IMG/VR virus record: IMGVR_UViG_2526164602_000025
Span: 1 to 4,188 of that record
Origin: a virus
Taxonomy: Duplodnaviria; Heunggongvirae; Uroviricota; Caudoviricetes
Direction: 5' to 3' (one strand)
DNA: 4,188 nucleotides
Below, piece after piece: positions 1 through 3,000 of this stretch. The position numbers were made by a program. How positions within the stretch are numbered: the first letter of the stretch is position 1; each line of letters opens with the position of its first letter.

Positions 1-3000
1 TGATACCTATGGAGAAAAAATAAAGGAACGATACTTTCGTACTCTGGTTTTTAATGAAAACAGTTCTTATTGTCAACAATAACGGAAAGAAATTATGACA
101 TTTCTGAACCAGTTAATGCTGTACTTCTGTACGGTGGTCTGTGTGCTGTATCTCCTTTCGGGTGGGTACAGGGCCATGCGTGACTTCTGGCGCAGACAGA
201 TTGACAAAAGGGCCGCTGAGAAAATCAGCGCCAGTCAGTCAGCCGGAAGCAAACCCGAAGAGCCGCTCATTTAGCGGCAACTTTCTTAATCACACCTTTC
301 GACGAGAAAATCCCATGTCAGAAATTACATCCCTGGTCACTGCAGAGGCAGTGAAGGACGTCCTGCGCTCTGAAGAAGTCCGGAGCGCACTGAAACAGAA
401 ACTTCGCCATAACCTGGAAGCGCGTCTTGATGCAGAAGTGGATGCCATTCTGGATGAACTGCTTGGTGTACAGGCAGAGCCACCGACTGAAGCGGGAGAT
501 ACCACCGCAGAGAGCGGTGAAGTTCAGCCTGAATCACCGGTCGCCGATGCGACTGAACCTCAACCCGAATCGGTCATGATGCTGTAACGGGGAGTCAGGG
601 CCATCAGTAAACAGCTGCTGGCCTTTTTCATGTTGTGAGCTTCCGGATTGCGGGAGACGGGGTATGTACCAGATGGAAAAAATCACAACAGGTGTGTCAT
701 ACACCACGTCAGCGGTGGGAACGGGCTACTGGTTCCTGCAGTTGCTGGACAGGGTTTCCCCGTCTCAGTGGGCGGCAATAGGCGTGCTGGGGAGTCTGCT
801 GTTTGGTCTGCTGACGTACCTGACGAACCTGTATTTCAAGATTAAAGAAGACCGGCGTAAGGCGGCGCGGGGAGAGTAAGCTGATGAGCAGGAAATTCCG
901 CTATGGTTTATCAGCGGTAGTTCTGGCGCTGATTGCCGCAGGTGCTTCTGCGCCTGAAATCCTCGACCAGTTTCTGGATGAAAAGGAAGGTAACCACACC
1001 ACGGCATACCGTGATGGTGTGGGTATCTGGACCATCTGCCGTGGAGCCACCCGGGTGGATGGTAAGCCTGTGATTCCTGGCATGAAGCTGTCGAAGGAAA
1101 AATGCGACCGGGTTAACGCTATCGAACGGGATAAGGCGCTGGCATGGGTGGCGAAGAACATCAGAGTGCCACTGACTGAACCCCAGAAAGCGGGTATTGC
1201 GTCATTCTGTCCTTACAACATTGGCCCCGGTAAGTGTTTCCCGTCGACGTTTTATAAACGAATTAATGCAGGTGATCGAAAAGGTGCCTGCGAAGCGATT
1301 CGCTGGTGGATTAAGGACGGTGGCAGAGACTGCCGTATCCGCTCAAATAATTGCTACGGTCAGGTATCAAGACGTGACCAGGAGAGTGCGCTGTCATGCT
1401 GGGGTATCGACAGGTAAGCAGAATATTTTGCTGAAAAATGACGTTGGCCAACGCGGGCAGATAACACGAAATCCTGCGAACTGGCAAAATGTAAGTGAAT
1501 AAAGTCAACAAGATTGTTTCATGAAGAGGCACCGTAATGGTGCCTTTGTCATTTCTGCGCTTCGCACAAGCGTAAATAAACCAAAGAACCTTTCAGGATG
1601 AGCCCTGGTGGATAACCGGCAGTGGTCTGGTTAACCCTCTTTGGGCTGGTTATTCCTGTGCGCAGGGTTCATCACTAAAAGGAAATAACCGATGAATATG
1701 ATGACCGTGCCGTTTCACGGCGATTCTCTTTATGTGGTTAACCATAACGGCGAACCATACGTTCCCATGAAACCTGTCGTTGCGGGGATGGGGCTGGCCT
1801 GGCAATCACAGTTGGCTAAGTTAAGACAGCGTTTTGCGTCAACTATAACGGAAATCGTTATGGTTGCTGAGGATGGGAAACGACGCAATATGGTGTCCCT
1901 GCCGCTTCGAAAACTTGCAGGCTGGTTACAAACCATCAATCCCAACAAAGTAAAACCCGAAATCCGCGGCAAGGTAATCCAGTATCAGGAAGAGTGTGAC
2001 GATGTTCTCTATGAATACTGGACGAAGGGTTTTGTCGTTAATCCCCGTCGAATGAGTGTGATGGAAGAACTCAATCAGGCTTGCGCTGACATGAAACGGG
2101 ATAAAAACATTGCCAGTGTGTTTGCTACCGGGCTGAATGAGTGGAAACAGGTTAAATCCGCGCATGTATCAAAAATCCGCACATTGATAAACGAAGCGAA
2201 TCTGCTGATTGATTTTGTCCTGGCTGATACAGGCAAAGGGAAAATAACAAAGGCGGATTGATGGAGTGGTGGCTAATGATATCGGATAAACTCATAACGC
2301 TGGCGAAGATCCTCTGTGTAATCGTCGGCATTTCATTTTTAGTCATGCTGGTTGCCATTTTCTTTTCCACCGCCTGGCGAGTCCTGACGTTATCGGGACT
2401 GGTGGGGTGAAAGAGAGATGAACCGTGTTCTGTGTGTGGTGATTATTGTCCTGCTGGTAGCCTGTGGTGCGCTTAGTCTGGGGCTGAATCATTACCGCGA
2501 TAACGCCATAACCTACAAAGAGCAGCGCGATAAAAAAGTCAGTGAGCTGGAGCTGGCAAATGCAACCATTACTGATATGCAGCAGCGCCAGCGTGATGTT
2601 GCTGCACTTGATGCCAGATACTCGAGGGAATTAGCCGATGCGAGAGCTGAAAATGAAACTCTTCGCGCTGACGTTGCCGCTGGTTACCGCAGCCTGCGGA
2701 TCAACGCCACCTGTCCAGGTCCCGTGCGTGAAGCCACCGGCACCGCCCGCGTGGATAATGCAACCGGCCCCCGACTGGCAGACACCGCTGAACGGGATTA
2801 TTTCACCCTCAGAGAGAGGCTGATCACTATGCAAAAACAACTGGAAGGAACCCAGAAGTATATTAATGAGCAGTGCAGATAGAGTTGCCCATATCGATGG
2901 GCAACTCATGCAATTATTGTGAGCAATACACCCGCGCTTCCAGCGGAGTATAAATGCCTAAAGTAATAAAACCGAGCAATCCATTTACGAATGTTTGCTG

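Follow-up and report, generated by a model that had tools for sequence, protein, structure and literature searches.

In phage T4, the holin is tuned jointly by two small antiholins, RI in the envelope and RIII in the cytoplasm. In phage Mu, gp25 (the “releasin”, DUF2730, PF10805) is a 99-amino-acid (aa) protein in an N-out/C-in orientation with four residues outside, encoded after the spanin and before the terminase, and needed for release of the signal-arrest-release (SAR) endolysin (PMC9239132). The Shewanella prophage LambdaSo, which is lambda-like and has a pinholin, a SAR endolysin and Rz/Rz1, encodes Lcc6 (SO_4795), a 65-aa protein whose transmembrane domain (TMD) occupies residues 5-22 and leaves a tail of 43 aa in the cytoplasm. 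Lcc6 is reported to be required for lysis, acting at the pinholin step, and its gene lies close to int/xis, at a distance from the lysis genes (bioRxiv 10.1101/2024.01.23.576932). Here we set beside these systems two small genes, ORF1 and ORF2 (open reading frames of 59 and 90 aa), which lie ahead of the pinholin gene in a 4,188-nucleotide stretch of a Caudoviricetes virus (positions 1 to 4,188 of IMG/VR record IMGVR_UViG_2526164602_000025), referred to as the window.

ORF1 and ORF2 are genuine protein-coding genes under purifying selection and are co-inherited; they come last among the genes of a portable cassette composed of the sialate O-acetylesterase gene nanS-p, a DUF1378 gene (ORF1), a DUF826 gene (ORF2) and a terminator. 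Both genes are already catalogued, and roughly one complete E. coli genome in five carries them; what is added here is comparative, in that the pair is recognised as the tail of a nanS-p cassette with its own terminator and the DUF1378 family is tied to the end of lysis cassettes. We tentatively read ORF1 as a membrane-tethered lysis accessory factor, similar in design to the releasin and to Lcc6, with the DUF826 protein as its acidic cytoplasmic partner, a reading to which we would give a little less than an even chance. The first 900 bases of the window are 100% identical to many phages converting to Shiga toxin 2 (Stx2) and 99.4% identical to 933W and VT2-Sakai; in the Sakai prophage Sp5 the two genes are named ECs_1210 and ECs_1211. 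The elements on which the argument turns are the following:

95..274, plus strand: ORF1, 59 aa, ATG start, DUF1378 family (PF07125, phrog_494), with a single N-terminal transmembrane helix over about residues 3-25, GGY where the helix leaves the membrane, and then a basic tail
315..587, plus strand: ORF2, 90 aa, DUF826 (PF05696, phrog_311)
597..632, plus strand: intrinsic-terminator-like hairpin, with arms 599-607 / 615-623, loop 608-614 and TTTTT at 624-628
664..879, plus strand: S21-type pinholin S (PF04971, E 7e-33), in the same orientation as ORF1 and ORF2
884..1417, plus strand: SAR endolysin R (PF00959), N-terminus MSRKFRYGLSAVVLALIAAGASAP

The coding status of the two genes rests on an alignment of the region in 58 distinct versions, collected from related loci. 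The ratio of the proportions of nonsynonymous and synonymous differences (pN/pS), obtained by the Nei-Gojobori method for nine diverged variants, was as follows:

ORF1: 0.28
ORF2, whole: 0.50
ORF2, residues 1-52: 0.40
ORF2, acidic tail: 0.58
Other frames over the same bases: 0.89-1.46
141-314, the N-terminal extension that gives the 148-aa “L0106”: 0.89
The 41-aa upstream “hypothetical protein”: 0.94

By this comparison ORF1 and ORF2 are the real frames, and the annotations of L0106 and of the 41-aa protein are unsupported. The latter, entered in RefSeq for an identical phage, has its 3′ end within 1..94, with its stop at 82, and was rejected as a gene on the grounds of its pN/pS and of all three codon positions varying equally. 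The initial annotation had placed two small ORFs of the same orientation before the pinholin, at 95-274 (59 aa, single-pass membrane) and 315-587 (90 aa, acidic), followed by a terminator, all of which stands, and the conservation and coding signature on which it had made them depend are both present. It had also called them uncharacterised, which is correct for their function, profile searches having placed neither in a family of known function, and incorrect for the families themselves, which are already named and routinely annotated in RefSeq.

ORF1 is a typical DUF1378 member: residues 1-59 match positions 1-59 of the 59 in PF07125 with 134 bits (E 2e-39), the Pfam gathering score being 25 bits for both PF07125 and PF05696, and its identical copies in RefSeq carry the name “DUF1378 family protein”, for a family without assigned function. 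It lies just under the 60-aa default of ORF listings, and is missing from the ORF track of the window because it is one residue short of that cut-off. The most hydrophobic 19-residue window of the protein covers residues 3-21 (mean Kyte-Doolittle 1.98), and the tail, residues 26-59, is basic, with an isoelectric point (pI) of 10.3. Residues L9, Y10, F11, V15, L18, Y19, L20, G23 and G24 are invariant in relatives down to 36% identity, in which Y25 and the basic stretch after the helix are also kept; the alignments thus place in ORF1 the hallmark of the family, an N-terminal helix with LYF...V..LYL.xGG[YW] and a basic juxtamembrane stretch. Since no basic residue precedes the helix and eight lysines and arginines lie in the 34 residues behind it, the positive-inside rule predicts an N-out/C-in topology. 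An assignment of ORF1 as an outer-membrane spanin subunit (o-spanin) was rejected, as its cysteines are not conserved in relatives, there is no conserved lipobox and the cassettes already contain an embedded Rz1, and one of DUF1378 as a holin was rejected because the cassettes already hold a holin.

ORF2 matches PF05696 over residues 1-68 (101.6 bits, E 2.6e-29); identical copies in RefSeq are called “DUF826 domain-containing protein”, again a family without assigned function. The protein is acidic (pI 4.17, with 20 aspartates and glutamates to 7 lysines and arginines) and is composed of a conserved helical domain, residues 1-52, and an acidic P/E/T-rich tail, residues 53-90, which varies in length and sequence across variants, except that a C-terminal MML/MMM is conserved. 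Recombination has shuffled these parts, as one variant combines an identical ORF1 with a very different ORF2 tail. The AlphaFold models of both proteins consist of single helices and disorder (predicted local distance difference test scores of 68-70), with one long helix at residues 2-49 in ORF1, and helices at 10-17 and 20-51 followed by a disordered tail in ORF2. Neither protein matched anything in NCBIfam, the PADLOC defence models or the PDB sequences. The label “head completion protein” that DUF826 bears in some phage records was discarded, no supporting profile match having been found.

The 59-aa form and DUF826 have their homologues almost entirely in Escherichia and Shigella. DUF1378 is found in 309 records and DUF826 in 306 of the phage collection, and DNA of the pair is present in 1015 of 5426 complete E. 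coli genomes, in a median of three copies. Diverged E. coli variants keep a constant order of nanS-p (DUF1737-SASA-DUF6645), DUF1378, DUF826 and an S21-type holin, while upstream of nanS-p there is either stx or a methyltransferase, and downstream of S there are insertions and different spanins. In Stx phages the cassette lies between stx and the lysis genes, its terminator separating it from S, and a further terminator-like site is found between stxB and nanS-p. A version of the cassette in Mu-like prophages follows a tail fibre gene, its assembly protein gene and a Gin-type invertase gene, and runs nanS-p, DUF1378, DUF826, terminator, with Mom after it (loci L136-L157, L201 and L206; for example L141:2500-6200). 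A second Mu-like version has assembly protein, DUF826 in some loci, DUF1378 and Dam, without nanS-p (L207-L215). In a P2-like prophage (L205:1433-6285) the order is HP1-type holin, lysozyme, LysB-like gene, nanS-p-like esterase, DUF1378, gpR and gpS, with no DUF826; nanS-p looks as if it had been inserted between spanin and DUF1378, and the layout may be an intermediate arrangement. The description of the pair as the head of the lysis cluster was misleading, for the two genes and their terminator belong to the nanS-p cassette and occur in Mu-like prophages far from lysis genes.

The predicted fold of the terminator is a G+C-rich 9-bp stem with one mismatch, on account of which a simple consensus scanner missed it, and the T-run follows directly. 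A hairpin and T-run after the ORF2 stop are kept in 13 sequence variants, with differing stems and loops; RNAalifold gives 10 pairs for these variants, one of them with a compensatory GC to AU change in 3 sequences, and several wobble changes. In Mu-like prophages DUF826 is also followed by a hairpin and T-run, unrelated in sequence, for which reason we assign the predicted terminator to the pair and not to S. Another hairpin, over the ORF1 stop (262-278), was set aside as not conserved across variants, and the AsxR/AgvB anti-sRNA locus was rejected as an identity for the region, AsxR lying 282 bp 3′ of stx2AB on the other strand. An Rfam search of the window found nothing.

The link to lysis comes from distant DUF1378 relatives. 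Among 1.84 billion cluster representatives, a profile search picked out only 37 DUF1378-like proteins, the named ones from Klebsiella/Raoultella, Pantoea and Brenneria, and a scan of genome contigs with the DUF1378 profile returned a single Brenneria locus. Loci were then taken from viral contigs, their ORFs called, and the neighbours clustered and the clusters annotated, which gave 71 distinct loci in three groups: after the spanin genes, in E. coli lambdoid phages as in the window, and in Mu-like phages. About half of the 71 have a class II holin, a SAR endolysin, an Rz-like gene and then the DUF1378-like gene, whose product in this clade measures 80-90 aa and has a long tail rich in A/E/K; a few have a 3-TM (three transmembrane segments) holin and a GH19 endolysin instead. 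The Rz stop is overlapped by the ATG of the DUF1378-like gene (ATGA, 4 nt) in 24 of 31 loci. Because the overlap recurs in many independent loci, we count the DUF1378-like gene as a member of the lysis operon and not as an independent insertion. An embedded lipobox Rz1 ORF is present within the Rz genes at 30 of the 31 loci, so the cassettes are already complete in spanin, and their endolysins have SAR-type N-termini of three different kinds.

Two deposited phages share the holin-endolysin-Rz-DUF1378 layout. Stenotrophomonas phage BUCT709 (L012, OM816835; about 48% G+C in the region fetched) and Elizabethkingia phage EKP1 (L217, OM284015) carry enterobacterial-type lysis cassettes with DUF1378-like genes; the closest protein relatives of both are in Klebsiella, and the deposited hosts look doubtful. 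A few loci also have a conserved soluble protein of 74 aa (cluster c88) between Rz and the DUF1378-like gene (L099:4712-4936, L115:4739-4963 and L217:3239-3463), which recalls the gp24-gp25 pair of Mu.

Compared with Mu gp25, ORF1 has the same succession of an N-terminal TMD ending in a GG motif with basic residues (...VVAGGAVWAMRR in gp25, ...LLSGGYRAMRDFWRR in ORF1) and a cytoplasmic helical part, predicted in ORF1, and DUF1378 relatives, like gp25, have their genes between those of the spanin and the terminase. Mu gp25 works with SAR endolysins, and the phage of ORF1 also has one. The two differ in that gp25 is a single chain with an anionic cytoplasmic domain, whereas ORF1 has only a 34-aa basic tail, and in that Mu lacks a holin, whereas the ORF1 phage has a pinholin. 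A releasin gene would be expected no more than five genes downstream of the endolysin gene, whereas the ORF1 gene is upstream of the holin and three genes upstream of the endolysin; the distant DUF1378 relatives, downstream of endolysin and Rz, do have the releasin position. The design of Lcc6 is matched by ORF1 in its 59 aa, TMD at about 3-25, 34-aa tail, and pinholin and SAR endolysin downstream, a likeness to the published description of Lcc6; Lcc6 is reportedly required in LambdaSo, whereas the DUF1378 pair is not strictly required for S21-type lysis, being absent from DLP12 and Qin. With T4 RI and RIII the likeness is that of a pair of small proteins, one membrane and one cytoplasmic, without sequence similarity and with a different type of holin, and RI has its site of action in the periplasm, where ORF1 would expose hardly any residues.

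We put a lysis accessory role for ORF1 ahead of the other readings because of the relatives that overlap Rz and because of the design shared with gp25 and Lcc6. Under this reading, late transcription from pR′, antiterminated by Q, would read through the terminator, which would stop other upstream transcription before the holin. ORF1 would be an inner-membrane protein whose short N-terminus faces outward and whose basic tail reaches into the cytoplasm. There ORF1 would promote or time either the freeing of the endolysin from its membrane tether or pinholin triggering. ORF2, as a soluble, helical, acidic cytoplasmic protein, would dock on the basic tail of ORF1 (pI 10.3 for the tail versus 4.2 for ORF2) and would supply the anionic cytoplasmic module that the releasin carries in one chain; we propose it as a detachable partner because the cytoplasmic part of the releasin is anionic, ORF2 acidic and the ORF1 tail basic. 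The pair would thus be a modulator and not an essential component of lysis. The wider proposal that DUF1378 is a new sequence family of lysis accessory factors, equivalent in function to the Mu releasin and Lcc6 and split in Stx phages into an anchor (DUF1378) and a detachable acidic module (DUF826), is in our view doubtful.

A number of results weigh against a lysis role. As to sequence, neither ORF1 nor eight of its relatives matched PF10805 at E<=10, where gp25 itself scores 50.4 bits, and homology of DUF1378 to the Mu releasin is unsupported, hhalign of the DUF1378 profile with gp25 giving a probability of 0.2%. The idea of a split gene, in which DUF826 would correspond to the long tail of the 80-90-aa relatives, was dropped at an hhalign probability of 0.8%, the lysis-cassette clade has no DUF826 in the surveyed loci, and the contact between ORF1 and ORF2 is pure inference. 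As to context, the K-12 prophages DLP12 and Qin have an S21-type holin and a SAR-type lysozyme without the pair and with other cargo upstream, so the pair is not an obligatory partner of the S21-type holin. The pair is upstream of the terminator and hence grouped transcriptionally with nanS-p, not with S; Mu-like prophages carry no lysis gene within 2.5 kb of it; a cargo cassette would explain these Mu-like contexts, and the place of the terminator, just as well; and all positions of the pair are also classic moron insertion sites. A full-text literature search found the pair in a single paper, which lists the two proteins, encoded between nanS-p and S, merely under “unknown function”, a further text match to DUF1378 being a typographical error for DUF1738.

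The best surviving alternative is that the pair is a moron that benefits the lysogen, for instance through superinfection exclusion at the inner membrane or another envelope function, and has nothing to do with lysis, its nearness to the lysis genes merely reflecting the places where cargo is inserted. All of its contexts are known cargo positions (between Q and S, from spanin to terminase, after tail-fibre genes, and at the Mu-like right end), which include the Mu-like prophages just mentioned, and it travels with a cargo gene, nanS-p, and has a terminator of its own in two unrelated contexts. In an array study, ECs1211 was 3.3-fold lower after the transition from exponential to stationary phase in an uninduced culture, which is weak evidence of expression; a signal in uninduced exponential cells favours the moron reading, but spontaneous induction or paralogous copies could also account for it. 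Against this reading, a crude consensus match detected no sigma-70-like promoter ahead of ORF1 or nanS-p, or elsewhere on the plus strand from stxB to S; no PADLOC defence model was matched; and the overlap of the relative's start with the Rz stop in 24 loci speaks for operon membership and not for insertion with its own signals. We consider the moron explanation unlikely. The initial annotation had offered both a modulator of lysis timing and a moron, and the first of these has gained comparative support for ORF1 from the relatives after Rz, while the data choose neither.

It is more improbable still that the pair serves the NanS-p esterase as an accessory, helping a cytoplasmic enzyme without a signal to reach the membrane or to be released, with the link to the holin incidental. 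NanS-p does start MAFKHYDVV... without a signal peptide, and its gene is immediately upstream of the pair in every E. coli lambdoid locus and in the gin-to-mom Mu-like loci, and directly upstream of the 59-62-aa form in the P2-like locus; in the Stx phage, moreover, terminator-like hairpins bracket the three genes. Such a helper is, however, difficult to reconcile with the roughly half of the distinct DUF1378-like loci that lack nanS-p and have the gene after Rz, or with the Mu-like loci L207-L215, where DUF1378, with or without DUF826, follows the tail-fibre assembly gene in the absence of nanS-p.

Hardly credible, finally, is the notion that the two ORFs are not what is expressed, the region being non-coding or the true product being the 148-aa GTG-initiated ORF at 141-587 (L0106): the 933W record does annotate L0106 as a 148-aa protein, and many database entries hold N-terminally extended “DUF826” proteins of 127-154 aa, but the extension at 141-314 is under no purifying selection (0.89 versus 0.28 for the ORF1 frame over the same bases), the excess of third-position change tracks the ORF1 frame, extensions of the L0106 type differ in length and sequence between variants, and in Mu-like loci both genes have strong Shine-Dalgarno sequences, 35 nt apart. 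We regard L0106 of 933W (window 141-587, plus strand) as an artefact of a 148-aa frame. Spurious N-terminal extensions are found on many public “DUF826” entries, and rare fused DUF1378-DUF826 ORFs exist (P0128, phrog_8301).

Since the toxin of Stx phages exits through phage lysis, a gene for lysis timing would also shift toxin dose and phage yield. If the proposed lysis role of ORF1 and ORF2 is true, the pair, present in essentially every Stx phage, helps to set the timing and amount of toxin release; otherwise, ORF1 and ORF2 are a further cargo module accompanying nanS-p. The DUF1378 relatives translationally coupled to Rz, which end complete pinholin/SAR-endolysin cassettes, make this a testable hypothesis on the timing of lysis and toxin release.

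The remaining features of the window concern the flanks of the pair and the rest of the lysis cassette. The gene order runs from the end of the nanS-p esterase region through ORF1, ORF2, the S21-type pinholin, the SAR endolysin and an Ant-like gene to a 50-aa membrane ORF, Rz/Rz1, bor (on the other strand) and an IS3-family transposase:

1..94, plus strand: spacer from nanS-p to ORF1, variable and non-coding; nanS-p ends upstream of the window
640..663, plus strand: region of the stem CTTCCG / CGGGAG (640-645 / 651-656), which spans the Shine-Dalgarno sequence of S
1525-1547, plus strand: strong terminator-like hairpin (10 pairs and a T-run), directly after the endolysin region and ahead of the Ant-like gene
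1692-2261, plus strand: Ant-like gene (P22_AR_N and ORF11CD3), inserted between endolysin and Rz
2258-2410, plus strand: hydrophobic ORF of 50 aa
3559-4188, minus strand: IS3-family transposase ORF (rve domains), downstream of bor and running past the end of the window

The stem at 640-656 is invariant across variants while its loop varies, and is part of the holin gene and not of the pair; we infer a resemblance to the “sdi” start-choice structure of lambda. S begins MYQMEK, with two in-frame starts and no lysine in the three extra residues, unlike S of phage 21, which starts MKSM, and the lack of this lysine may affect the working of the antiholin form.

With the Ant-like gene and the terminator-like hairpin inside it, the lysis cassette is split by another cargo unit. 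The 50-aa ORF is a second membrane microprotein of the cassette (phrog_4906, without a Pfam match; annotated in Sakai as ECs_5707), which overlaps the ant stop and ends 8 nt ahead of Rz. Where the window has the IS3-family transposase, other Stx phages have terminase genes, and in Sakai a similar IS629 interrupts nanS-p instead.

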